DNA of 62,656 nucleotides, filler included, from Porpidia crustulata (Eukaryota): the NCBI GenBank assembly GCA_964255105.1. It is 8 parts of 8 records of this genome, joined end to end, with 100 filler letters (N's around TTAATTAATTAA, not from the genome) between each part and the next. Parts side by side here need not be neighbours in the genome. Positions count along the whole stretch, not along the records: positions 31,406 to 39,145 come from CAXUWE010001243.1; 7 more parts are not named here. One strand, 5' to 3'. The position numbers and the translations under genes were made by a program. The notes under the pieces are model-generated. The model saw only the letters and a program-made list of their open reading frames with translations. It was not told where the DNA came from and ran no database searches. Shown here piece by piece: positions 1 through 41,511 of the stretch (positions are counted from its first letter, which is position 1; each line of letters begins with the position of its first letter).

Positions 1-2780
1 CTTCAAAAAAGAACCCAAATAACTCAACCATCACATCAAAGCCCTCAAACCCACCCCAGCCAAACCAACATCTGCGACGAACGCCCGCAGCGTGGTCAAA
101 GTGCAATGAGGGTGACAGCGCCTCCGGATCTCTAAGTCTTTTGGCTGCTTGCTGTTGGTGTTGTGTGGGAATGCTAAGTGGGGCAAGAAAGGAGGAGGGT
201 AGGTGTTGGGCTTTGTTTGGATTTGTTGGTCTCAACGGCGTCCCTGTCGGTCGCCGCGGTACCGCCAGCATTTATCAACCCTCAGGATAAATCTCTTTGT
301 TCTCGTTGCCGTTTAGATACAGTATTCTTTCCACGGATGACATCACCCCAGCTACTGCTTTCCCAGCTTTCAATACTCGAACAGCTTCAGATATCCTAAC
401 CGTCATTCTCGTCAATAACACTTCCGTCCACGCACTTAAAGCAATATCGAAGGACGCGCTGACTAGGATGTCGAGAGTTCCGGAGGTAGAGGTATGCTGA
501 TCTGAGTACTGGGCTCTTGAAAGTTTTGGTTGGAGATGTTAAGGAAGGAACTGCTGGAGAGTATTTCGGGAATGGAAAGGGGATATGGTAGGGGGGATGT
601 GGAGGATATTACGGATGGTCTTATGCTTCTGATAGCGTGGGATAAAATGAAATTCTGATAGAGCGTTGAAGAGGGTATGGGAAGCGCGGAGGAGATGGAG
701 TGAAGGGCCTTCCTTGTTGGAGATGTTCGAGGAGCCATTAAGAAGGGCGTTCGCGAGGGGGCTGTGTGATGGCGGTGATTGCGCTGGAGGTATGAAGTTG
801 GATGTTGGGTTTCTCGATAAGTTTTGGTCAGACCACACAAAATGGTAGCTTTTTTGAAAGATTGTTTAGTCTTGAGTCGGTAGTGATTCCCATGAACCTT
901 ACCTTTCCTACGGCGTCTCACGTCTTCAACGCTAGCTTCGATATCCTCGCCTTCGATAGTTAACTAGTGCGTCATATCTAACCATCGAGCTAAATTGTCA
1001 TCGCAGAGCCAAAGTGTCTGTGGATATGAAATAGCGAGCTGATTGATCTGGTTATACTGTCATGTGGCAAAATTGATGTATTGCTACGTAGAGATTTGGA
1101 CATCTCTCATTTTCTTTCCGTGAGTTGTGGCACTGCAAGGCTATCCATGGCGTTGAAGCTATTGTAACAACGTGAGAATATGGATGGAGATTTGGATAGA
1201 GCTTTCATCTAGGGCGATAATCGGGGCGCTATTCATGGTAAAGTCTAGAGCACTGGAGTATCTGGTGTGTAGCTTTCATTTCGCTCATTCAACGCAGTCT
1301 CAAAAATCCTCATAGGATGTCGAAGGGTTTGAGAAGGAAATTGGAAGGACGTCAAGGATTCTAAATCATCGGAAAAACACTGTGAATGAGCCCGAGGGCG
1401 AAGACTAGGATGTTCGAGGTGTTCAACACGTTGACCAAGGCGTAGAATCTCGAAGAGGGCGTGGAGGAAGACTTCGAACTCCTGGTGGAGTTTTAGTCAG
1501 AATCTGACCCAAGCGATCGTTATATCAAGAGCAGCGAAAATCGCAAGCGTCCCTTCCCACCTTACCACTAGTACCACCGTCAAAATCCCCACATTTCGTC
1601 TCCTGCAGGCACTGACGGCGTCAACGACTTCCGCAGCTCTCGCAGTCCTTGACACCCCTGGCGATCTCTGACCAATCTTCCAAGCATGCGTGAGGAGATG
1701 CCAAAATGGAGAAGGCGCTGAGGGCGTTGGGGGTGTTCGGAGGCATTTCGAATGGCGGCGATGGCATTGCAAGCGGTGACAGCGGTCCTGAATAATTTTG
1801 AGTTAGTCGTAGACTTTGAAAACTATATGAATCACTGCCGCCTTGTGCTCCACGTTGCTGCTTCTGATGCTTTTGCCGCCACAGTTCTCAAAGCTCTTCA
1901 TAATGTTCTCGGCATTTCATAGAGCGACAAAGGCGACAATGAAGAACGTCTGCGCCCTGGGAAGAGTGAGAAAGTTGAGGGGAGCGTACGTTGAGTGGAA
2001 CGTTTTAAAGAGCAGACGATGAGAGGTGTATCATCCGGTGTGTTTAGTGTCCGTAGCACCCTGCTCAAACCCGGCATTATTCTCACTTTCATTTTGGCTT
2101 CGTGAACAGTTAAACTGGCAGTGGGAACGCCAGGGGTAAGGTCGCGATGAAAAGTTCCGCGGAAGGCGACGGATCATACTTATAAGCAGATCAGTGATAT
2201 GTATTGAACGTGATGAGCATCAGAAGTCCTGCTGAGAAACGAGAAAAGCCGTGAAGCTGAAGAGTTGATGAAAACAAGAAGATGAGAATGAGATTTAGCA
2301 CGCTTGGACTGTAAGCGATTGATACGTTCGAGCATCGTGTTAGCAAAAGGGCTGGAAGTTGGATGAGAGAGATGAAAGCTGTGTCGGTGAAGACTACCAG
2401 CGAGCATGTGTAACCTCCCTTCCTCACACTTGTTCTGCCCTGCGTTTAATCTTTTCTTCATACTCGACGCAGCCAACTCACCCAATGTCCCAAAACACGC
2501 GCAACTCAATCGAAGCCATCGTAACCCTGGAGGTGGAATATTTGGAGCACAAAAAGTCCATGGCTTACAAGTCTCAGCCTTGGTGAATCCGCTGATGAAG
2601 GACAGGAGGGATTCCAAGAGTTGGATGATTGATGTGGGATGGAGGAACGAATAGGGTTAGCGGGGCGAAAACGCGAGAAAATGTATCCATAAAAGCCATA
2701 TGCACCACCTCGCTTAGTCCCGTATGCTTCCTCTCCCTCCACTTTGTTCTCAAGCTTAACCTATACAAACCCCTTAGTAC

Positions 2781-3544
2781 TCACTCAACTTTGCTCTCAA
2801 AATCTCTCCCTTCCACCAAATCCGGGATATCATCATCATCGTCCTCGCCCTCTTCCTCTTTACCCCCGCCACCACCTCCGCCCTCTTTCTTCTGCAGGCT
2901 CTGATAGCTCTCTGCTAGTTTACGCAAGCTTGCCAGGCTGTCGGGACCGAGCTGATTGAGGATCCCTGGGACGAGTTCGGTGAGTTCTTTGTCTTCGCCG
3001 GCGCCGTAGATGGCGAAGGTGTTGGAGGGGACGGAGGCATGGACTATGTATCATAGATCAGCAGATGAAAATTTGGGGCTTCGGTGTTGGGAGGCGGTCA
3101 GGATATGCTAGATGGGTAGAAGGGGCATACCTTTAGGAGCAGCGAAGTGAATTACGTTTCCATCTTCCTTGAACATGTTTACTTCTTCAATGGCCTGGAT
3201 AGGCTGAACATTGAGTTTCTTGAGCGAGGTCTGGAGTTTTTTGTCGTCGGTGCCGGAGGTCTTGTGGACTTTTTTCATCTTTCGGCGGGGAGTACCTTTA
3301 CCGCTGATGTTGATTAGCTTGAGAGGGAAGAAAACGATAGGAGGCTTTAAGATATGATTTGGGCGCGCGGATCTAGCTGGCGTGGTAGAGGGATTTGCTT
3401 ACCCTATATTCGCATTTGATTATTAGCAATGAACATGGGAAGAGTAGCTGCAGAGATTGCATAGAGGATGGAAAGAGAGTTGCCGAGCATTGACTCACCA
3501 ATTCGTACCGACTGCTGCATCTTGGCTAGCTTTGCTTGATCCAT
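2781..3544 (-). CDS. EGD1: Nascent polypeptide-associated complex beta subunit (BTF3/Egd1); exons 3544-3499, 3403 (1 nt), 3303-3131, 3043-2781
   Basis: Manual splicing gives [30 protein letters not shown]...[41 protein letters not shown]...[25 protein letters not shown]...[16 protein letters not shown]. Total 483 nt, canonical GT-AG introns with CTAAT/CTGAT branch sites. Confidence 0.96.
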
Positions 3545-4113
3545 AATTGCGGAGGATTGATATAGAGTTGTCAGTGTAAATATAGTCTTTCAAGAACGGG
3601 CGGTGGGACCCGGAGGTATATGTGTCGGCCGCTGGGAATTGAAGCTTATTTCGATAAGCTGAGAAACAGTAGATTAGGAATTAGAAATAGAACACAACTC
3701 ACGGCGTACTCAGGTACTCAAGCACAAACGTCTGTGGTATGGTGCTTTGGTCCGGGTCCGAAGTTCGTGCAAGGCTAAGCGAGGGTTGGGGAAAAGCTAC
3801 GACCGTTGTTCCCGTTATCAGCCTCCTCGAATCGTCGTGGTTGACGTTTGACATAGGAAGCATATAAATACATGCTTGATGTAGGTAGAGTGATAATTTT
3901 AAATGCCCGTCCAATCATACTAATATCAGTGTAATTTGCAAAAGCTTCCCCATCCCCTCAAATAAAATACAAATATAGATAGTTCCGCCATGAGGTATCA
4001 TTGCTCTGGCTAGAATCGCAAATGCTCCAACGCCTTTTTGTGCTCGCCTCTCCTTTGTATCAAACACTCTGCAAATATTAGAATGGCTTGGTTTGTAGCG
4101 CTTGATTTTCTCT

Positions 4114-6235
4114 TTATTCCTGTTCCTGCTTGATGATACCGGCTCTCAATCGTGCTCTCTTAACCTCAAGAGCTAGTACATCGTTGTCTGACTCGCCAAG
4201 GTCCAATGCCAACCTTTTCCGGGATGCAGGAACTGGTATTGCTGAGCCGGGAGTCACGTTATCCGTAACAATAGATGCCGCGGACGAGGGTTCTGACGTC
4301 CTTCGAGGGACTGCGGCTGTGCTGGGATACCGTATAGTTCGTTCACTCTCATCAGCCGTGATATTTGCGGCTTCGAGAAGTTGGGATCGTGCTTCATTGA
4401 AGCGAGTGTCCTGCTGCTCAGGGCCTGTCTGTAAACGCGGTAGATCACCGTTGGATCTATTCTGAGACTGGTTGCTAATGCTGGCAGCTGGTCGGGCCGG
4501 ATTCGTTGTGCTTTCGTATCCTACAGGCGCGATTGGCGATGTCTGGTTTGTCATATTGGCCACTCCAAATGTATTCCTCAAGTTTGGTAGAGGCCTAGAA
4601 TTCGACAGGCTGGAGTTGTTGGATAGTGCGACATTATTATTCTGCGAATTTCGCGCCGGAAGGGAGCGGCCGTTAGAGTTCCCCATACGTCGCTGCGTAC
4701 TACCTCGAGGTCTGCCCGCCTTTCTCCAACGAGTATGTTCGAACGTAGGTCCATCAACAGCACCTCTCTGCTTTTCCAACCCCTCTATAAACTTCCAGAT
4801 GCTGGCCCAACACTCCCTATTGACCCTTAACTCAGGGTGTATCTCCCTCATCTGTTTCCTCATAGCGAGGATATCACCTCTGAGCATTCCAAGTGGGCGC
4901 TCCATTTTCTGCGAGATCAAGCAGCACACTGCGATGAGCTCAACCGGCGCAAATGTTCTGACAGTCCTATAGCCGTTATCCTCAAATATGCTACGATCCA
5001 GTTCAACTAGCCCTCGGAAAGTTTCAAAGACGAATCGCAGATGTGACTTCGTCATCGCGTCCAATGACTGCGGGTTTGAGCATAAAGATTCGATAGATTT
5101 CATACTGTTCCTTAACCTCGGGACGCCGTTCGCTTGAATAGGATCGAGGCATTCATAGATTTGGGAGAAGCAGGCCAGGATTCCGCGGAACCCGGATGCA
5201 CGTTTCTGTTTGACCAGGTTGACCACATCCGCAAAATCCTTCTCGTACAGCTTGGCGAATTGCTGCCAGCTGCCCTGGGTCGCCCGAAACGCCTCTGCTG
5301 AGGTGAGTGGTTTTCCGAGCTGGACTCTTTGGAAGAGCTCTATCTCTTGTGTCTCTGTGAGACCTCTGTATTCCGTGCATAGAATCTCGATCCTCATAAA
5401 AGCTTCTCGCGCACCATCTGACAATACCTTTCTTTTGTGTCGTTTTATAGGGATACCATTTTCGTCTATTTCTTGGACATCACAGAAGTACCTAGGATAC
5501 AGCTGAGCATCGTGCAATAGTACCATCGAAGTTTCAGAAGCTCTAAAAACTTACCAGAGCTTTTTGTCAATCACAAGTGGAAATTTTCCATTCAAAAAGT
5601 CCCTTATCGACGTCAATCTCTATTATGGTATTAGCCCCATTTCCAAACCAAGGCACCCGACATCATGCTTTACCTGCTTCCCATCCACGCACGTCCGCTT
5701 AAATCTCATGTTTCCATGCTGATCTTTCGTTTCCGTAACATTGAAGATGACCTTTAGGATATTAGCTTAATGAGGTGGCTTCGACATAATTCGTCCGTGG
5801 CTATTCGAAGCATACTGGAGGAATATAATAACCATTTCTCATCGAATCAATCAGCAACCTCATGGCCTTTCTTGACCACACCACACCTCTCTGGTAATGA
5901 GGCGCCAGATCAAGATAGGGACCATTCATCAAATCTGCAATGAATTAGCATCACTTTATTAATTTTGCTTCTCAAAGGGAATCAAGACCAATAAGTTGCG
6001 AGAGCTTTCGCTTGGCAAAGTCATAAGGAGGCATGCGAGGAACATGGTTGAATGGATCTTGAGAAACTTCTTTCTCTTCATTGTCATATTCATCTTCCTC
6101 CTCCGATTCACCAGAATAGGCTTCATCCACTGAGGCTTCATTGACTCCATTTACCCGTGATTCCAAATTAGGGTTGGCCCAAGTTTTATGGACCGAAGGT
6201 GACGCTTTCTGTTGAGCTTTCTGATTTAGAGGCAT
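4114..6235 (-). CDS. DUF262 (GmrSD N-terminal / ParB-Srx-like) domain protein with disordered C-terminus, about 5 exons
   Basis: Spliced exons upstream of the 470-aa ORF give LDLAPHYQRGVVWS...LLIDSMRNGYYIPP|VIFN...CVDGKQ|RLTSIRDFL, followed by ELFQRVQLGKPLT. These are the QR..VW, DGxQRLT and F.R.N/Q.G..L motifs of DUF262. The start codon and first donor are less certain. Confidence 0.8.
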
Positions 6236-31405: not shown

Positions 31406-33161
31406 GTTTTGGAGGGATGGACGAACCTCTTTTTGCGCTTCGATCGCGCCCTCTAAGAACGTCTCCACGCCGCTTTTGAAGTCCTCGACCTTTTCCTTTT
31501 CGAATCTCTCCAGTTCCCCACGCATTAAACGGCCCATGTCTTCGAACAGCAGCCGCGCTTGGTGGCATCGCCGTTCGCCATCGCCAACATCCGCCTGCAG
31601 TTGGTTTAGTCGGTCCTGTTGTGTTTTCCCGGACGACAGTACTTTCTCCTGCGTCGCGCGCCGTTTCGACAGTTCGGTCTCGGCGCTGCGCCAGGAGTGG
31701 AAGGATTTCTGGCGCTGGGAGAAGGCGGTTTTGATGGAGGCGATGAGGCGGATGTATTCGTCAACGGTGATGCCGAGGGTGAGGACGTCTTGCTGGGCTT
31801 GACGCTCGTAGAGCTCGCGGATACGGATTTGGAGATCGGAAAGGCCTTCAAGGGGTGTAGATAGGGATACGGAGAGTTCGACTGTGGCAAGCGCGTGCAG
31901 AGAAGCGGAGAAGTCGCCGGCGGCCTCGGCGAGGGCTTTGCGCTGGATTACCACAGTGTCGATGGATTTCTGCAGGGCTTTGAGCTGATTTTCTAGAGCG
32001 TCTAGGTAGATCTTTCGCTCGTGGAACCAGTCATCGTGTTCGACGAACTTGCCGCCGCTCGCGGTACCGAAGGTCAGAGAACTAAACATGCCTTTGCTTT
32101 CGCCGAGGCCAGGTTCCTTGTGTTCACGGTGTTTGACGTCCACGTTGAAGGCATCGCTTTCGAGAAAGATCTTTAGGTCACCGTCGTGTTGGAGGATGGG
32201 ATGGGCAGCGACTTTGTTCAGCATTCTTTCCAGTGCCGATCTTCGGGATTCGACAAAATTGCTGTCGAAACGGCCGACGACTTGTTTGTCTGGGGGTGGT
32301 GGGACAACGACTCCCGGATTGTTGTTATGCAAGGAATTATAGAGCCATAAAAAATCTCTATAACGGCGGCTGGCTGAGAACTCGGGTTGTTTGTAAGCTT
32401 TAGAGCTCGTCTGGACAGACTTTAGCGTTTGACCCATACTTCAGAATCAGTATTTTGCTCTACCTTCGTCCGCACTTGGTACACAATATGACTGTTTGTC
32501 AAGTCTCCAACCTTGTGCGGGTCTCCAACAGTAATGTCAAAGCTTGGCCGTGCTGCCTGCTCGATACTAACACTTGGTTGAGTCTGCCGCCTGATATTCT
32601 CCGGCCCGCTATGGATTCCTTGAGGATGCCTCGTTTTCGAAGCTGCAGAGTGATCGCTATCGCCGAGATCTACGGAGTCCATCATACTCCTGCTCAGCGG
32701 CGACTGATTAGGAGTTTGTGCTTGGCGAGCGTTTCTGAGAGGTAATGATTGTTCTTTCAACGGGGGCGCGGGTGGATGCTCAGCTCCAAGGGCTGGAGCA
32801 TTGTCACCCAAAGGGCCCAGAGGACCTAAGGAGTCATCGACAGCTTCCAGGCGGGTAGCTTGAGCACCGACCCGGCGCGGTGTCCGCGGACCTCTGCCAA
32901 CTGGGGATCTTGGGGTGGGAGGTTGGGAAGTGGTTGAAATTTGGGAGGGCTTGGGCTTGGTGTCCGATTCTGAAATCTTCGTAAGCTACAGGGCTCATGG
33001 GCAAACGATTTGGTGTACCTGGAGGTTCTGTTGCGCCAACTTTATTAAGGTTGGCGTTCGAACTTGATCGTGAGGGAACATCTGAATTTCTCCATCAACT
33101 CTGAGAGCAAAGAACGGGAGAACGGTGGCACACCTCCCCAGGGAGAGTCTTCCGCGTCCAT
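31406..33161 (-). CDS. VPS5: Sorting nexin Vps5 (PX-BAR, retromer), last exon truncated
   Basis: MDAEDSPWG, FDITVGDPHKVGDLTNSHIVY, RRYRDFLWLY..PGVVVPPPPDKQVVGRF, BAR domain ending FEKEKVEDFKSGVETFLE. Confidence 0.95.
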
Positions 33162-34228
33162 CGCAATTAGATTCAAGATCCTTTACGCCTTAATGCCATA
33201 GATGGAAAGGGTATCATTTGATCATCAGAAGGTGACTGAGTATGATTGGGGTTTCATAGTGTGCTCTATGGGTTCCGACTGTCGGTGTTTCGGATCTCTT
33301 GCGGAAAGTTTTGGCGCTAGCAATTCATGTCCCATTGGAAAGATTTCTATCAAGCATCACAATCAACCTACGAGTCTTATTGCGACAGGCCTCACTGAGT
33401 AAAGGAGTGTCCTATGGGGTTTAATACCTTTACGATATTTTATAAATTGGCTGTTGTGCTCACCCGTACGGGAGGTGGTATCCCAAGGGTTTGTCATAAG
33501 TGAACCTATTCGAAATTATTTGGAGCTGCAAGTACGCCTGGGCATCTTCTCGCACCGCGTCAACTGTATGGTTGACAGCATGTTGACATTGAGCTTATTA
33601 ACTTGGTCGCTACTTCAATTTCTTTGGATATGCTGATGTGATTGTGGAACTGGCTCTCTAGTCATCTCAAGACTTGTAGTTAGCTCCTTGTCGACGATGA
33701 TGGAAACGATTAGTCCCCAATCATTTACTGCTTCTCGAGGATTGTATTCATGAGGGTCAAAGAGGACTGGCATAGAAACCTTTACAGATTGAGACTATGG
33801 CAATGATATCTACTGAAAAGCGGTGGGAGTATTTCCAATAATGCAAGTTTCAGGGACAGAAATGATGGTAATAGTTGAGTATGCAGGATTTGACCATATA
33901 AAGAACATGTGCGTTACTAACGGCGGTCCATTGCCACCTGTTAGTAAGAAGCAGGCTTCCAATGTCCATCCCGGGAGAACTACCGAATCGCCCATACATC
34001 TCATTCTCTGGTAGTGGATGTAGAATTTGAGGTTTCCAGGTGGACTATCAATCTCATAATTGGTGAAGAACCTAGCCTTTGGTTCAGTTAATTGGCCCCA
34101 GCCATCTCCAACGGTGCTGGCTCAACCGTATTGGATGAGAAAACGAAGACCGCGAAAAGTCTTGATGGCCGACCCCGAAGAGGAATAGAGCAGAACTGGG
34201 CTTACTCGATAGCTGGCGATCTTTCATC

Positions 34229-34882
34229 TCACCTGTCTGGTAACTCTTCCATTTCAAGCGTCTGAGGAAAGGTATTACTATTGTTGTCCTTGGCCTTCTG
34301 TTCCTCTAAAGTCTCGACAAATGCTTTCGCTTCCGTCCACAACTCTGCCTCCATCTCCTTTCCAACCTTGTTATTCCTACTGTTCAGCCACCCCACATCG
34401 ATATTGCCTGGTCCAACCCCTTTGCTGAAGTGCTTGTTGGCTTTGGCCTGCCCATTCGAAAGAAGATTCTGCGCCCCCATGATATCTGTAATCGCTGTTG
34501 AGTCGTTTGGAGCGGTTTCGGTGTCTCTTGTTGTCAGTTCTGTGGGTATGATCTCAGCTTCTTTTAAGGCATATATTTGGCGTCGTAGTCGAACGTCAAT
34601 GGCTGAGAGTAGAGAAAAGTATCTAGTAGTTGCAGATATGAAATTCTCTTTTTGCTCATGGATAGATATGGCATCCCCATCATCTGGATCGGAGGATGTG
34701 CTTTTTGTCAAAGCTTTAACGGCAAGGCCGGCAGATTCAAGTAATTTGGTCACGTCCTTGGGATGCGGTCAGCGTTATCGACCAGTGCCAGCCCAAACAC
34801 CACAGCATACTTTGTCGATATCGTTCAGTTGCTTTGTTCTATCACTAGCAGTGAACTCAACCTTTCCAGAGCCTGAAGCCAT
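34229..34882 (-). CDS. MED11: Mediator subunit Med11, 2 exons
   Basis: QLNDIDK|DVTKLLESAGLAVKAL, YFSLLSAIDVRLRRQIYALKEAEII, GNIDVGWLNSRNNKVGKEMEAELW. Confidence 0.88.
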
Positions 34883-35168
34883 TAGGAAATAATTATGGCG
34901 ATGGGAGGAGACTATTGTGCAGTTACGAGCCACGGAGCTAGACTTATGCGGGACATATCGGGGAGTCGGCGTCTGCAGCTTCCCGCGGGGCTAAACCTTA
35001 TTCTGACTGGAGAGATGCCTACTGACCTTCAATACAAATATCCCTTGTGAAAAGTACCTAGAAAGTTACACCAGTTGAACATTCTCTCGACATGTTATCT
35101 TATGTAAGCGTGCCTACTATCACAGCGATTGAATAGATGTTGTATGTTTTTCTTGAATAGAATTCCAA

Positions 35169-38100
35169 ATGGCAGGCGGACCAGGTCCTAGACCTACCAC
35201 CAATGGCAATACCAACGGTGGCCTGGCCATGGCCATGCCGCCTCAGCAGAGAACCAACGACGCTCAAATAGGCGGAAGTGGAGCTGGGCAAAATGGGGGC
35301 ATGTCGCAGCAAAATCTTAACGGTATTGTACGAAAGACAATTTTTCCATCTTTATTGCTCAAAAGATGCACTATTTTGTTATAACTTATAGCTATACATT
35401 TCATGTTACTCTGTATGTACAGTTTCTCAAATTTCTTGTTTGGAGAATATAGCACAACGTTTGTCGTGCTTTCCATTTACACGGCGGACATGTTGAGCTG
35501 CAGGAACACCTTTGTGGTACACATAGCCAAGCACTTGACCAAAGGAAGATGGACTGCTACAATACGTTGAAAATTGCTGCTCTTAAATTCAATATCAACT
35601 ACAATACATTTCCAATGAATCACGTCTTCATTGTGCGCAACAAATTCTCGACTTCACACGCCCAGTCACAACCGTCAGTGACTGTGCACTCGCTGCTATG
35701 AATACACCCGAATATAAGGGCGGCCGTCCTGCTAGAGGGTCTACAAAGAGGGTACAAGGGCCTACAAGGCGGAGCACGCGAATTGAGGACGCTGAACAGG
35801 CACCAGAATCCAGCACCGACACTTTGTCACAGTCACTGAATCCATCCAAGTCGCGTACAGCTAGGAATTTCAAGACACCAAAATCTAGAAAACGCAAGAC
35901 CACAACCACAGCAGAAGGTGGGACCAATACCGACCAAAGAGAGTCCTCGCCCTTGATATGTGGGCACGATTCCGCTAAGCCGTCGAGTTGTTCCATCCAG
36001 CCAAAAGCCAGCATCAGTAACGATTTAGTAATACCACAGCGGCCTGTATCGTCCGGAATGGACCTCAACATCTTGGGAGGCGAGCCTATGTCGCCTGATT
36101 ATAGTAGCCCATACAAAAACGATCAAGATACAGAAGAATCTTCAACAAAGGTCCAGACACAGTCACTGAAACCAAAAGTGTCTTTAAATCAAGCGCAAGC
36201 GCCTCATGCGTTATCTAGCCGTCTTTGGACTACAGAAAATATGACTGCTGCAATGAGACTGGGAGTTAGCGTGATCGATTACGTTACTACAAAAATGCTG
36301 GCTCCCCAGATGACAAACGAAGAGCGCAGGGCCGTGGTCAACGCATCCGAGGATGTATCAATTGCAAGTGTACAGCAGACACAAGATCCAGCATATCCTC
36401 CAGTGCCTTCCATGAAAGTACTACCGTCGACTCAATTGCCACAGCCGTCTCTATTTACAGTGGCATCAAACAATCCTGGGGCGTCTACTTTAGGACTCAG
36501 CGATAGTGCGAATACTAAGATGCGTGGAGCTATGGGTGGAAACTCAAACACACAGAATCACAGGCGTGATGTGAGGTGGCAGGCTGGCGACGAGGAAAGA
36601 AATGCGAGTCGTCCGGAGTCTAGAGGTCAATTTGTTGCGCCACCCAAGACTGGAGACGGGCCCCAGAGAAACTTCGCTTTTCCGGCTAGCCGTGCCTTGA
36701 ATAGAGGCACGTTTGGAATGTATCAACTGGAGCTAAATGTGATTCCTCCGGGTGGTTTGGCAAGTCGCCCGCGTTCTCGAGACCCTACGGTGGGTGCCGT
36801 CACTATGTCTGGACTTCTGTATCTGTCATCTGACAGGACACGGCCTCATGAAAAAACTTTTGATGCAAAAATTCACGGAACGATGCTTGTACCTCAGTAA
36901 TTAGTGAACGCCGCAAATGTTGTCTACAAGTTATTTCTACTTCTTCATCTTCATATTGATGCCGCTTCACCATTTCACCCCCATCCTCAAACACTTCTCT
37001 ATTTCAAAGTTCATGGCGTAACTCTCAAATTTTCAATCACTCTCGTCTGCATTAGTAAAAGCCAAGATGAGTGCTAATGTAACATACCAGGTCATTGAAT
37101 ACCTTTGCAAAAAAGGGTACGCCCGAACTGAGGCGATGCTCCGACTTGAATCTGCAAATCAGGATGCTGAAGGAAAGCCAATACATGCAAGAGCTGAGGA
37201 TGCAGGGGGGGCAAAGTACGGCAAAGCCTTGGGTAAACATTGAAACCTGAGATAATATATTGCATACGTCATAGACTGAATTCGTTCGCAGAACTTATGC
37301 AACGATGGGTGGAGGAGAATTTGGAGATATATAAGGTGAGATACCCTCTTTGGGTATTAATTATTGGTCCTAAGAGAGATTCAGGCCGACCTACGTCGCT
37401 TACTTTGGCCTGTCTTTGTCCATTCCTTCTTGAATCTCGTATCAGACTACTATCCTAGAGAAAGTCGCAACTTCTTCAACTCGTTCAAGCTGCACTTCAG
37501 CAAGGAACACGCGGACGATCTTCGAGTTCTTGAGCCCATAAACCTTCCAGAGCACGTCGTAACAAACGATATCGCTAAGATCTATCGAGGTGCGAAATAC
37601 CGGGTGACGATGAGTTCGACAGCTTTCTACAACCTCTGCCAATTTCTAGAGAGTAGGGAGAAAGAAGGCGGCACTGTCATACTTAGCATCTTATCGAGCT
37701 GTCTCAACATAGTTACTGTAGAGCGCTCCGCGGACGATCAGCAAGGCCTCGCAAGACTAGTAGACAGATCGAGAACAATAGAAGATTTCCCGGCTGAAGA
37801 TGAAGGTATACCGGGTCACAATCCTGGATCTGCGAATCTCGACCGCAATGCAGGATCTACGGTACTGACAAGATTGAGACTCGCACCTCTGCCTATGGAT
37901 CCGGACCTAACAGGCGACGTGAGGGCTGAATTGGAATCAGAAGACGCATTAAAGCCACCGGTCAACGGTCAGAGCTCGCTCATCCAGCATTTTGAGCAAC
38001 ACATCAAACGTGAAGAGAGCGAAGATGCGCCCAACCGTACCGATATTCCTTTACCTCAGGCTTTAGCCCGTGATGTCGCCATGGAAGTCCAGAAGGTCAA

Positions 38101-39145
38101 AGAGAATAGGGATCGATTCAAAATTGAGGGTAGGACAGGGGGCGTTGGGCCCGGTGTTAGCGTAACCATGTTCACGTTCCACAACACCTTCGACAGCATC
38201 ACGTGCCTTGATTTCTCCCAAGATAACCTTCTTGTCGCAGCCGGCATGTCCGAATCCTATATCCGCGTCTGGTCTCTTGACGGCAAAGCCCTCCCCTCGA
38301 TAATTCCCGACACCCAGCCCTCAGCCTCACGCCGCCTAATCGGCCACTCCGCTGCCGTCTACACCGTCTCCTTTTCCCCTTCGACCACACCCCCGACCTC
38401 TTCAGACCCTACTATTCCCTCAACAAGATCTAAACACCTCCTCTCTTGCTCAGCCGACAAGACTGTCCGTCTCTGGTCCCTCGAAACCTGGACCTGCCTC
38501 GTCATCTATAAAGGCCACGAAGAACCTGTCTGGGATGTGACTTGGGGACCATTCGGTCACTACTTCCTGACCGGCTCCCACGACCGCACCGCACGACTTT
38601 GGTCCACGGACAACATTTCGTATCTACGCATGTTCGTCGGCCACGATCTCGACGTCGACACCGTGGCCTTCCACCCCAACAGCGCCTACGTCTTCACCGG
38701 CTCTTGCGACAAGATCGTCCGCATGTGGGCCGTCAGCAACGGCTACCCAGTCCGCATGTTCACGGGCCACACGGGCAACGTGACCGCGCTGGCCTGCAGC
38801 CCCAGTGGCAAGATCCTCGCCTCCGCCGACGACGGCGGCATGATCATCCTCTGGGACCTCGCGCCTGGCCGCCTGATGAAACGCATGCGCGGCCACGCCA
38901 AAGGCGGCACCTGGAGCCTCAGCTGGAGCGTCGAGAGCTCCATCCTCGTCTCCGGCGGCGCCGACGGCACGGTCCGCGTGTGGGACGTCGCGGCCGGCAA
39001 TGACGCCAGCGGCGGCCCTAGTAAAATCGTGCCCGAGGGCGGCAGCGGCCAGAAAATTGACGGCAGCGCGGGCGCGGCGGGTGTGAATGGCGCGGGAACC
39101 GGTGCGTCTGTGGCGGTTGGGCCCGGCGGTGGTGGTGGTGGTGGT
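35169..39145 (+). CDS. TAF5: TFIID/SAGA subunit Taf5 (LisH, NTD2, WD40); exon 1 35169-35327, exon 2 from 37091, 3' truncated
   Basis: ...MSQQNLNGI|VIEYLCKKGYARTEAMLRLES (LisH), LRRLLWPVFVHSFL (NTD2), SVTMFTFHNTFD, WD40 repeats (LIGHSAAVY, GHEEPVWDV, GHDLDVD). Confidence 0.95.
35698..36900 (+). CDS. 400-aa intronless ORF nested in TAF5 intron 1; unknown, S/T/P-rich, basic cluster KSRKRK
   Basis: Uninterrupted ATG-TAA ORF of 1203 nt lying wholly inside the predicted intron 35328-37090. No recognisable domain. Confidence 0.55.
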   Translation: MNTPEYKGGRPARGSTKRVQGPTRRSTRIEDAEQAPESSTDTLSQSLNPSKSRTARNFKTPKSRKRKTTTTAEGGTNTDQRESSPLICGHDSAKPSSCSIQPKASISNDLVIPQRPVSSGMDLNILGGEPMSPDYSSPYKNDQDTEESSTKVQTQSLKPKVSLNQAQAPHALSSRLWTTENMTAAMRLGVSVIDYVTTKMLAPQMTNEERRAVVNASEDVSIASVQQTQDPAYPPVPSMKVLPSTQLPQPSLFTVASNNPGASTLGLSDSANTKMRGAMGGNSNTQNHRRDVRWQAGDEERNASRPESRGQFVAPPKTGDGPQRNFAFPASRALNRGTFGMYQLELNVIPPGGLASRPRSRDPTVGAVTMSGLLYLSSDRTRPHEKTFDAKIHGTMLVPQ

Positions 39146-39245
39146 NNNNNNNNNNNNNNNNNNNNNNNNNNNNNNNNNNNNNNNNNNNNTTAATTAATTA
39201 ANNNNNNNNNNNNNNNNNNNNNNNNNNNNNNNNNNNNNNNNNNNN
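39146..39245. other. Artificial contig linker
   Basis: N44-TTAATTAATTAA-N44. Confidence 0.99.
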
Positions 39246-40910
39246 CTCCCCGCCCTTCAACCTCATCCCACCAAACGCCTCGCAGCTCCTCCAATCCCAG
39301 AAACAAACGCCGCCGCCAGCGTCGCCGCTCATGACAAACCCGCCGTCGGGGCTGATGGCGACATCGACGGCGTAGCCGGCGGTATGGTGGCCCTTGAAGG
39401 CCTTTTTGCGGTTCTGGCGGAAGCGGTCGGTGGCGCTATAGACGACGATCTGGTTGTCGCCGGACTGGAAGGCGACGGCCTTGCCGGACGGGTGGAGGCA
39501 GGCGGCGGTGAGGGAGAACATGTAGGGTTCGACGATGCGCTTGATGGGGACGCCGATGCCGTACTCCCAGACCATGGCGGCGCGGTCGTCGGCGGTGGAG
39601 TAGAAGCGGCGGTCGTGGTCGATGAAGGTGAGGGTGTTGATGGCGCCGAGGTGGTGGTCGTAGGTGTTGATCATGTCGCCGCTGCGGCAGTCGTACTGCA
39701 GGATGGTGTTGTCGGACATGCCGGCGAGGAACTCGTGCGATTGCGACGGGTTGAATTTGATGACGTGCGGGATCTTGCCGTTGCCGAATTTTTGGATCGT
39801 TTGGCCGGTTTCGGTGTCCCAGAGGAGGATCTTGCGGTCGTAGCCCGAAGAGAGGAAGGAGGTTCCACCAGGCGAATAGTCAATGTCGCTGACCGACTTG
39901 CTGTGGCCAATGTAGGTTCGCAGCAGTTCGCGGTCGAAACCAGTATCCCAAAGTGAGATTTTTGTGTCGGCAGAGGCGACGAGGAGTAAGTGTCCGGATT
40001 TAGGAAAGAATCGAATGGCGTTGATTGCTTTGGTGTGGTATTTGTAGGTATGTATGAGCTTTTTGGGAATATAATTCTTGAGAATCTCCGACTCCCTCCG
40101 TGGTGAGTACATGAAGCTTCTACCTTGGTAATCCCGCAGTCGTTCCTCACTGCCATGCCATTCCGTAGTAGGCGAATTCGATATGTCCTCTTGGTAGTCC
40201 GTGGCCAAAGGCGCTGCTGTTGCAGGTACAGGTTCAATATCATCTTCGATGTATTCCTCGTCACTTGCTAGCTCCTCCCCTGCGATGGCTGCCTCATCTT
40301 CAAAGGCAAGGTCGTCATCTCTATATCTTCGCCAAGGTCCTAGATATCGCCCTTCGCCTTCGACAATACTAGCATCCCCCACTTTCTGTCTCTTCGCGCG
40401 CAGCTCTCTACTTCGATTTTTTAATGGCACCAGATCCAAACTTCCATATCTTTGAGCGCCAGAAACATCCCCAATGTCCGCACCAACTCCATTTGGATTT
40501 CTAGCATAGCCTTTCACACTCTGGTAGCTGTTATGATTTGCAGCAAAAGTAGAATCACTGATATGAATTTCTTCCGCACGGCCAGTGAGAACGTTTTTCC
40601 GCTTCAGCGCGTTACCATTAGCATTTTTGAAAGGATGCGCAGGCCCTTGTTCTGGGCGCGACAGATCGGCATACGGGATATTGTAGGTTAAAGTGGTATC
40701 AGTCGGTTGAGCCAGCATCATCTGCAAGCGCATAGGGTCCTGTGAGATGTTAGCTTGGGCACCCAAGACACGGAAATTGTAGGACCAAACATCTAGCGAT
40801 ACTTCGGGAGCAGCGACGACTGAAGCGTTAGTAGTCGCATAGCTCCTTCTAGCGGGAGGTGGAGAACCTTCTTCGTTGCTCGATTCATACTCCTGACCGA
40901 GTAAAGCCAT
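39246..40910 (-). CDS. PRP17: Pre-mRNA splicing factor Prp17/Cdc40 (WD40), 3' truncated
   Basis: LTYNIPYADLSRPEQGP, GRYLGPW, DYQGRSFM, IPKKLIHTYKYHTKAIN..RFFPKSGHLLL, YDHHLGAIN, FRQNRKKAFKGH. One short in-frame intron near 40741-40791. Confidence 0.95.
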
Positions 40911-41511
40911 GATAGCTGGACTCACTGGAATTGAGGGCCAAACCTTTCTGGAGAGAATCCACGGTTGTATTGATAGATCGTAATATTTCAGTACCATTGA
41001 CTAGTGCCCGCGGCTGATGTCTTTTAAGCGCGATATTGTAGGCTTACTTGAATTGGTCACCAGACAGTAGACACTACCTATGCAGAGAGCTCACGAGGTT
41101 TTAGGCAAGCTATAGTTCTCTTATCCCTTCGCTAGTAGATGCTATAATTCCATGCTGTTGAGATAAAGCCTTTATGCCGGTTCAATTGTTTTCATTATTA
41201 AGTCTTCTCGTCTCCAGGTATGAGTATGATAAGCCCAGGTATAATCAACTTAGGAATTCATTCATGAGAATCGTACCAAAGCTATTCATTGCTTCAGCTA
41301 GGACAATACCTTCAGCTACCTGCTACCCCAAGACCCCAAACCTGCGTATTGGCTTCTATCAAAATAGTCTGAAAGCAGTGTGCTGGAGTGGATATAACGA
41401 TGCATTGCTGGGGGCCTGACAATTTGGGATATGCCATGGCCCAGGTTATTCCGTGCCGGCTACTCAAGATTATCCTCCTTCGCGCATACTCTTACTTGCA
41501 GCCGCTCGTAG

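Follow-up and report, generated by a model that had tools for sequence, protein, structure and literature searches.

The window analysed here is a stretch of 62,656 nucleotides (nt) from Porpidia crustulata (assembly GCA_964255105.1), made of eight parts of eight records joined end to end, and all positions count along the whole stretch. Its part from 31,406 to 39,145 (CAXUWE010001243.1) carries on the plus strand the gene of TAF5, a subunit common to TFIID and SAGA. The first intron of this gene encloses, on the same strand, an open reading frame (ORF) of 400 codons, which is the subject of this text. The locus comprises the following features:

35169-35327, plus strand: TAF5 exon 1, 53 codons, with the last residues MSQQNLNGI, the first half of the LisH helix
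35328-37090, plus strand: TAF5 intron 1, 1,763 nt, with donor GTACGA at 35328-35333, branch site GCTAAT at 37073-37078 and acceptor CAG at 37088-37090
35328-35697, plus strand: AT-rich stretch before the ORF, 370 nt, GC 0.395, with upstream ATGs including the frame 35549-35701; putative internal promoter and 5′ untranslated region
35698-36900, plus strand: nested ORF, 400 codons and stop, of a six-member orphan family of 381-429 amino acids (aa)
36901-37066, plus strand: pyrimidine-rich spacer, 166 nt (over 36901-37090, GC 0.39 and C+T about 0.60); it would contain the 3′ end of the nested gene or the proximal TAF5 promoter and 5′ untranslated region, unless it is intron throughout
37091-37232, plus strand: TAF5 exon 2, which begins VIEYLCKKGYARTEAMLR, the remainder of the LisH motif
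37292-37335, plus strand: TAF5 exon 3, by our reading of the sequence; its frame carries on into NTD2
37385-39145, plus strand: TAF5 exon 4, NTD2 and WD40 propeller, reaching the N run at 39146

The positions of exon 1, its donor, the branch site, the acceptor and the ORF had been given in the original prediction, and all of them are borne out in the sequence and in the list of ORFs. The other TAF5 introns are short, as it had said, with 59 nt for intron 2 and 49 nt for intron 3.

The host gene is identified by exon 4, where Pfam finds TFIID_NTD2 (E 1.4e-33) and then WD40 (E 6.7e-52), the domain order of TAF5. The closest named TAF5 proteins are TFIID subunit 5 of the lichen-forming Lecanoromycetes Lasallia pustulata (76% identity) and Alectoria sarmentosa (73%), which places the window in this group. 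Exon 2 alone has no Pfam match; the halves encoded by exons 1 and 2 align together to the continuous N-terminus of 51 of the 120 best TAF5 matches, which we sorted by the type of their N-terminus. This canonical form, with ...NLNxI directly before V[IL][ED]YLxKKGY, is the continuous N-terminus that had been given for the Pezizomycotina when the long intron was proposed. Among the other orthologues 28 begin further downstream, 32 have short and 9 long non-canonical N-termini. Exon 1 of the window resembles several Lecanoromycete models end to end, for example P0037 and P0018.

The longest open frame in intron 1 spans 437 codons from stop to stop, while 2,000 shuffles of the intron give a mean of 105 and a maximum of 235; the analytic probability of 400 open codons, calculated from the intron composition, is 6.2e-10. 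The ORF forms a compositional island, with GC of 0.50 vs 0.39-0.40 in its 370-nt and 190-nt flanks. Rfam returns two matches, both far under their gathering scores (20.3 vs 37 bits and 17.2 vs 70 bits). A DNA contig of the probable source sample covers 32000-38682 with zero differences, which is not independent support, and two further sets of DNA contigs match conserved parts of other genes only, none between 33185 and 37213. Within the ORF a 17-nt direct repeat (94% identical, 35828-35844 and 36158-36174) encodes the repeated peptide QSL[NK]P, and a 12-mer of this repeat has a complement at 35675-35686, shortly before the start codon.

A full HMMER scan over 1.84 billion representatives yields four relatives of the ORF product besides itself:

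P0122: E 7.4e-52, 411 aa, 42% identity to the ORF
P0123: E 4.9e-11, 409 aa, 32% identity
P0124: E 2.7e-8, 381 aa, 33% identity
P0125: E 8.8e-7, 429 aa, 31% identity

A sixth member is added by L001, an independent metagenome contig of 6,383 bp and the single locus returned by the metagenome-contig scan with the family alignment; its ORF is 70% identical to P0124. The six members are collinear from a common start codon, with 28 invariant columns in the alignment. As the start codon is common to the family and an in-frame stop stands four codons upstream of it in L001, initiation would most simply take place at the ATG of the ORF. The word-index protein search with the ORF retrieves only the window's own ORF, and with the family alignment only P0125 and the ORF itself. 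The ESM Atlas has no usable match to the ORF, and none of 32 pattern matches in the prokaryote contig scan is confirmed.

In L001 the whole arrangement recurs:

end at 1847, minus strand: first exon of the Mediator subunit gene Med11, head-to-head with TAF5 exon 1
2169-2348, plus strand: TAF5 exon 1, with the last residues ...MSQQNLNGI, then GTAAGG
2739-3935, plus strand: nested homologue, 398 codons, at the same intron position as the window ORF
intron 1, plus strand: 1,770 nt, with donor GTAAGG, TGCTAAC and CAG at 4116-4118
from 4119, plus strand: TAF5 exon 2, which begins VIEYLCKKGYTRTEAMLR, with NTD2 and WD40 downstream

A long, ORF-bearing first intron outside the window, which the original prediction had proposed to look for together with codon-level conservation, is thus found in this contig. 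Amino-acid identity and the nonsynonymous (dN) and synonymous (dS) divergence between window and L001 are, part by part:

TAF5 exon 1: identity 0.81, dS 0.77, dN/dS 0.14
TAF5 exon 2: identity 0.94, dS 0.90, dN/dS 0.04
TAF5 NTD2 part: identity 0.88, dS saturated, dN/dS not computable
TAF5 WD40 part: identity 0.80, dS 0.96, dN/dS 0.14
Nested ORF: identity 0.32, dN 0.72, dS about 2 (saturated), dN/dS roughly 0.36, a rough value because dS is saturated

The non-coding parts, upstream of exon 1 and in the intron before and after the ORF, score 0.63-0.64 in alignment vs 0.64 for shuffled sequence, hence no better than chance. The AT-rich stretch 35328-35697 is unalignable to L001 save for two common 9-mers, one of them TTGTTATAA at 35376, which is about the chance expectation. 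Between the ORF and exon 2 no peptide is conserved between window and L001 in any frame pair, and the antisense frames of the ORF are short in both.

Hence, as judged from these comparisons, exon 1 is a genuine TAF5 exon under purifying selection and intron 1 is very probably a true long intron, because exon 1 matches the canonical N-terminus, shows a dN/dS of 0.14 against L001, is followed in both species by a donor right after the Ile codon, with the branch site and CAG standing before the Val codon, and keeps its place beside Med11. We note that many TAF5 gene models of lichen fungi are without exon 1, and the locus is thus probably mis-annotated widely. By the same comparisons the ORF is protein-coding, fast-evolving and held open by selection, since its position, start codon and length are kept while synonymous sites and flanks are saturated; the arrangement of TAF5 intron and ORF is conserved between two well-diverged species and is old.

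If the ORF were open by chance, or left over from an insertion of mobile or foreign DNA that is now decaying, this would explain why it is without a named homologue, domain or confident fold and why its third-position GC is low, and a very large scan can pick out a rare chance ORF. Nevertheless, the same intron, start and length are kept open in a species with saturated neutral sites, the family has six collinear members, and the ORF has no edge repeats, no other copy in the window and no match to a transposase or reverse transcriptase; we consider this explanation very improbable. The original prediction had seen no transposase, reverse-transcriptase or homing-nuclease motifs, and in Pfam we likewise find no transposase, reverse-transcriptase or endonuclease domain for the ORF. 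At its edges there are no terminal inverted or direct repeats, only internal repeats of 12-30 nt, and a second copy is absent from the window. We reject a mobile element or intron-encoded enzyme on these results, with copy number judged within the window. Introns that carry homing endonucleases, maturases, transposons or introner-like elements also hold a long ORF; the TAF5 intron differs from them in that it is spliceosomal, encodes no enzyme domains, has no terminal repeats, and its ORF is single-copy in the window and sits at the same place in two species.

Three parts of the ORF product stand out in the alignment:

35767-35784, plus strand: RRSTRI, codons 24-29, an invariant RRSxRI block, HMGN-like motif
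35872-35898, plus strand: KTPKSRKRK, codons 59-67, a basic cluster around the invariant P61, likely a nuclear localisation signal by putative function
36250-36387, plus strand: central conserved block, codons 185-230, where the sole two predicted helices fall (residues 192-200 and 207-214)

Conservation is strongest at residues 24-33, where R24, R25, S26, R28, I29, A32 and E33 are invariant in all six members, and a proline stands two residues ahead of RRSxRI in five of the six. The C-terminal LA[SN]-x8-V is also conserved in the family, and strict conservation is confined to such short linear motifs. The KSRKRK cluster reported earlier is present at residues 62-67. AlphaFold2, run with the six-sequence alignment, gives a mean pLDDT of 41 and a pTM of 0.12, with two short helices only, and serine, threonine, proline, glycine, asparagine and glutamine together make up 0.45-0.48 of the residues of the family, both in agreement with the disorder claimed before. 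The isoelectric points lie between 9.6 and 10.8. The product is thus predicted to be basic and intrinsically disordered. Pfam at E up to 1 finds zero families for any of the six members, and a profile search of the PDB with the family at E up to 10 finds zero matches. By its alignment the ORF product founds an unannotated orphan family of six with an HMGN-like motif.

The motif reads RRSARLSA in vertebrate HMGN, RRSSRLTS in tardigrade Dsup and RRSARIAT in Saccharomyces cerevisiae Dot5, and, as far as the accessible text of the two sources goes, cryo-electron microscopy and mutation demonstrate that the H2A-H2B acidic patch is contacted by its arginines, on which nucleosome binding depends (PMC12487698; PMC13347269). 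In the accessible part of the 2025 structure paper its authors suggest such motif proteins as an unexplored class of chromatin proteins (PMC12487698). The ORF product shares with HMGN, Dsup and Dot5 the core RRSxR[LI], with the three required arginines kept in 6/6 members, and with Dot5 the position of the motif near the N-terminus of a basic, disordered protein. It differs from all three in that no homology is detected beyond the six residues, and its nucleosome binding is putative. HMGN proteins are much shorter than the ORF product, which has about 400 aa. Membership in the HMGN family proper is ruled out, as neither Pfam (E up to 1) nor the PDB (E up to 10) has a match outside the motif; the likeness extends over six residues, in a protein whose physical character fits, and does not amount to family membership. 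We tentatively regard the product, at somewhat short of an even chance, as a nuclear, chromatin-associated disordered protein by analogy with these proteins.

The exon 1 frame, if read on into the intron, hits a stop at 35384, and further ATGs follow before the ORF. The ORF would therefore need a messenger RNA (mRNA) that starts inside the intron, which places a putative internal promoter in 35328-35697. The original prediction had proposed a nested gene or an alternative product, with intron retention among the routes. Its core stands, in that the ORF is real, conserved and coding on the same strand; a retained intron is unlikely to be translated into the ORF, given the stop at 35384 and the upstream ATGs. 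An autoregulatory role, raised there as a possibility, is neither favoured nor disfavoured by the sequence. A cassette exon between exon 1 and exon 2 was also considered and rejected: the sole in-frame AG near the start of the window ORF would open an exon at 35719, while L001 has no in-frame AG up to 2760 and, by eye, one that would open an exon at 2790, a non-homologous position. The short upstream frame 35549-35701 meets the start of the ORF in an ATGA overlap, which is present in the window as described; it is probably not a coupling device, because it is not conserved in L001.

We suggest, at about even probability and from the sequence comparison, that the real first intron of TAF5 harbours a same-strand, lineage-restricted and independently transcribed nested gene. 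Its transcript would start within the AT-rich 370 nt that follow the exon 1 donor, at a promoter of its own, and translation from the ATG at 35698 would give a protein of about 400 aa, basic, disordered and probably nuclear. The frame would run to its own stop and the transcript would end in the 166-190 nt before exon 2. In the product, the arginines of RRSxRI would reach into the acidic patch that H2A-H2B forms on the nucleosome. The canonical TAF5 mRNA would begin at the promoter shared with Med11, and its exon 1 would be spliced to exon 2 over the nested gene. Both units would then lie on one template, and transcriptional interference between them would therefore be expected. We infer the internal promoter, the separate 3′ end, the nuclear localisation and the nucleosome binding from sequence.

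Several points weigh against this proposal. A same-strand nested gene needs a polyadenylation site in the host intron, which would also cut the TAF5 pre-mRNA, and no clear polyadenylation signal is found in the 166-190 nt between the stop of the ORF and exon 2. Several upstream ATGs precede the ORF unless the transcript starts close by. The third-position GC of the ORF (0.40-0.45) is below that of the TAF5 WD40 part (0.75-0.77) and near that of the NTD2 part (0.46-0.52). The place inside TAF5 intron 1 is established for two of the six family members, those of the window and L001. The resemblance of RRSxRI to the HMGN motif covers six residues and was noticed post hoc. The start, end and junctions of the nested transcript are deduced from sequence comparison. 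Finally, a phase-0 GTGGGT stands at the last conserved residue and conservation is lost after it, which fits an exon that is spliced onward:

36790-36795, plus strand: GTGGGT, candidate donor, in codon phase 0 at the invariant valine V365; the same hexamer in the same phase lies at 3852 in L001

The ORF could accordingly be a second first exon of TAF5. The transcript would start within the intron, be translated from ATG 35698 and be spliced from GTGGGT at 36790 to the acceptor at 37090, and 364 disordered residues including RRSxRI would replace the 53-residue exon 1. We regard this as unlikely, yet as a rival that explains several features of the locus. It needs no polyadenylation site within the host intron. 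GTGGGT is in phase 0 at the homologous valine in window and L001, as is the start of exon 2, and the join would keep the frame in both; this compatibility is, on the other hand, a 1-in-3 coincidence that was inherited once, and as a donor in this genome GTGGGT is a candidate only. The spacing from LA[SN] to the valine is exactly 11 residues in 6/6 sequences, whereas the tails after the valine vary from 11 to 35 aa (mean 22.7), about what non-coding sequence gives before a stop, and 12 of the 15 tail pairs show no likeness above that of shuffles. The other three pairs are weakly similar just past the valine, their score being reached by 7, 8 and 25 of 1,000 shuffles, which speaks against this rival. 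The tail of P0124 is a shifted frame of the L001 tail, a point in favour, but the P0124 protein implies that two G's are missing in the hexamer, which would spoil the donor if the P0124 assembly is right.

Between the GTGGGT donor and exon 2 there is no conserved small exon, in line with a direct join; a small terminal exon there is rejected, since a search across all frame pairs yields no conserved peptide. Against the fusion, it would cost the LisH helix its first residues, and no fused protein is among the five matches of the full HMMER scan. In three Eurotiales models (P0050, P0063, P0073) a long upstream frame continues into exon 2 at the same boundary, and these are predictions only; by hhalign the family and the P0050 extension are unrelated (probability 0.1%), which rules out this extension as a relative of the family. 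In these TAF5 models, P0050 from Paecilomyces lecythidis (1004 aa) and P0063 and P0073 from Penicillium, basic or serine-rich N-terminal extensions of 319, 112 and 83 aa replace the canonical exon 1 at the exon 2 boundary.

As in known cases of alternative first exons, an ATG and a phase-0 donor are present in both 35169-35327 and 35698-36789, with one common phase-0 acceptor; the difference is that the second exon would be 1.1 kb long and would replace part of the LisH helix, with a junction that is predicted. An extended version of this rival, which we hold to be improbable, would have TAF5 in two forms, the canonical one and a long form whose 364-residue disordered arm with an HMGN-type arginine anchor would tether the TFIID/SAGA scaffold to the nucleosome acidic patch, switched by promoter choice. 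If the ORF is indeed spliced to TAF5, the general transcription machinery would carry a nucleosome tether that is selected by promoter use.

A further rival concerns the start of TAF5 itself:

37067-37069, plus strand: in-frame ATG that stands 8 codons ahead of exon 2 and could serve to start a short TAF5 form

TAF5 might be made mainly or only from this ATG (MSANVTYQ-VIEYL...), transcribed from a promoter beyond 36900; in that case the ORF would be an ordinary neighbouring gene on the upstream side, and exon 1 a relic or a distal exon that is rarely used. This ATG had been raised as a caveat to the long intron, and the caveat is real: the codon is kept in L001 (4095, MDANVRRQ), with a purine at -3 in both species, and recurs in models of other taxa. 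Its vicinity to the branch site may partly explain the local conservation. The 166 nt ahead of it are pyrimidine-rich, and in fungi such tracts often lie shortly before transcription starts. Sixteen of the 32 short non-canonical orthologue N-termini begin 8-10 residues before the exon 2 boundary, but the models in question are predicted ones whose reading runs across the acceptor, and related taxa account for many of them. Exon 1, moreover, is clearly under purifying selection (dN/dS 0.14) amid randomised non-coding DNA and keeps in both species its donor right after the last codon and its place at the Med11 promoter. We therefore find it improbable that the proximal ATG is the main or only start, at much the same level as the two-form scheme above.

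An in-frame ATG 7-10 codons before the exon 2 acceptor recurs in many Lecanoromycete and some Dothideomycete models (P0003, P0007, P0009, P0024, P0025, P0030, P0033 and others). Many of the short non-canonical N-termini end in Q or K, read from the CAG or AAG of the acceptor. The recurrent ATG may reflect a proximal start that is conserved and yields a short TAF5 form, or it may arise as a by-product of predictors that miss exon 1. A short form from the proximal start is possible on these sequences; use of the distal exon as well is indicated by the selection on exon 1.

Returning to the independently transcribed nested gene, we note its likeness to the host/nested gene pairs of Drosophila and mammals, for which transcriptional interference between the units is described in the accessible parts of the sources (PMC3192792, PMC5174743, PMC11694760). 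The TAF5 ORF, like the nested genes there, lies wholly within one host intron and touches no host exon, and by analogy with what these sources report interference between host and nested units would be expected here too. It differs in its host, a compact filamentous-fungal gene for a core TFIID/SAGA subunit with other introns of 49-59 nt, and in that the first intron of this gene encloses it on the same strand. The TAF5/ORF pair is, moreover, conserved past synonymous saturation, and the independent transcript of the ORF is a predicted one.

To our knowledge, there are hardly any descriptions, for the compact genomes of filamentous fungi, of protein-coding genes that lie within an intron on the strand of the host. 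In the accessible parts of the literature that we searched, no report of a nested gene in TAF5 or of an alternative first exon of fungal TAF5 was found. The significance of the nested ORF lies in its place: it sits, past synonymous saturation, in the first intron of a subunit common to TFIID and SAGA and beside a Mediator subunit, Med11.

Further observations concern the remainder of TAF5 and its surroundings. L001 has an extra TAF5 intron at about 5224-5338, between ...FHNTFD and ...MSESY, while the window is uninterrupted there (38195-38245); an intron was therefore gained or lost between the two species. Beyond the N run at 39146-39245 a WD40 protein of at least 584 aa (PF00400, E 1.3e-29) is encoded at 39246-40997 on the minus strand, convergent to TAF5 on the joined stretch. 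Paired runs of 44 N recur about every 7.84 kb over 7760-54922 (14 runs, 616 N), and TAF5 and the gene for the WD40 protein are both truncated at the 3′ end by the pair at 39146-39245. These paired runs do not look like biology.

On the other side of TAF5 lies Med11:

34811-34882, minus strand: Med11 first coding exon, from translation, head-to-head with TAF5 exon 1

The C-terminal piece of Med11 (34229-34480, minus strand) matches Pfam Med11 (PF10280, E 5.6e-9). The start codons of Med11 and TAF5 are 286 nt apart in the window and 321 nt apart in L001, head-to-head in both, which points to 34883-35168 as a divergent promoter common to the two genes. The pairing (Med11 at 34229-34882, minus strand, in the window and at 1229-1847, minus strand, in L001) brings together two genes of the general transcription machinery and is kept in both species.

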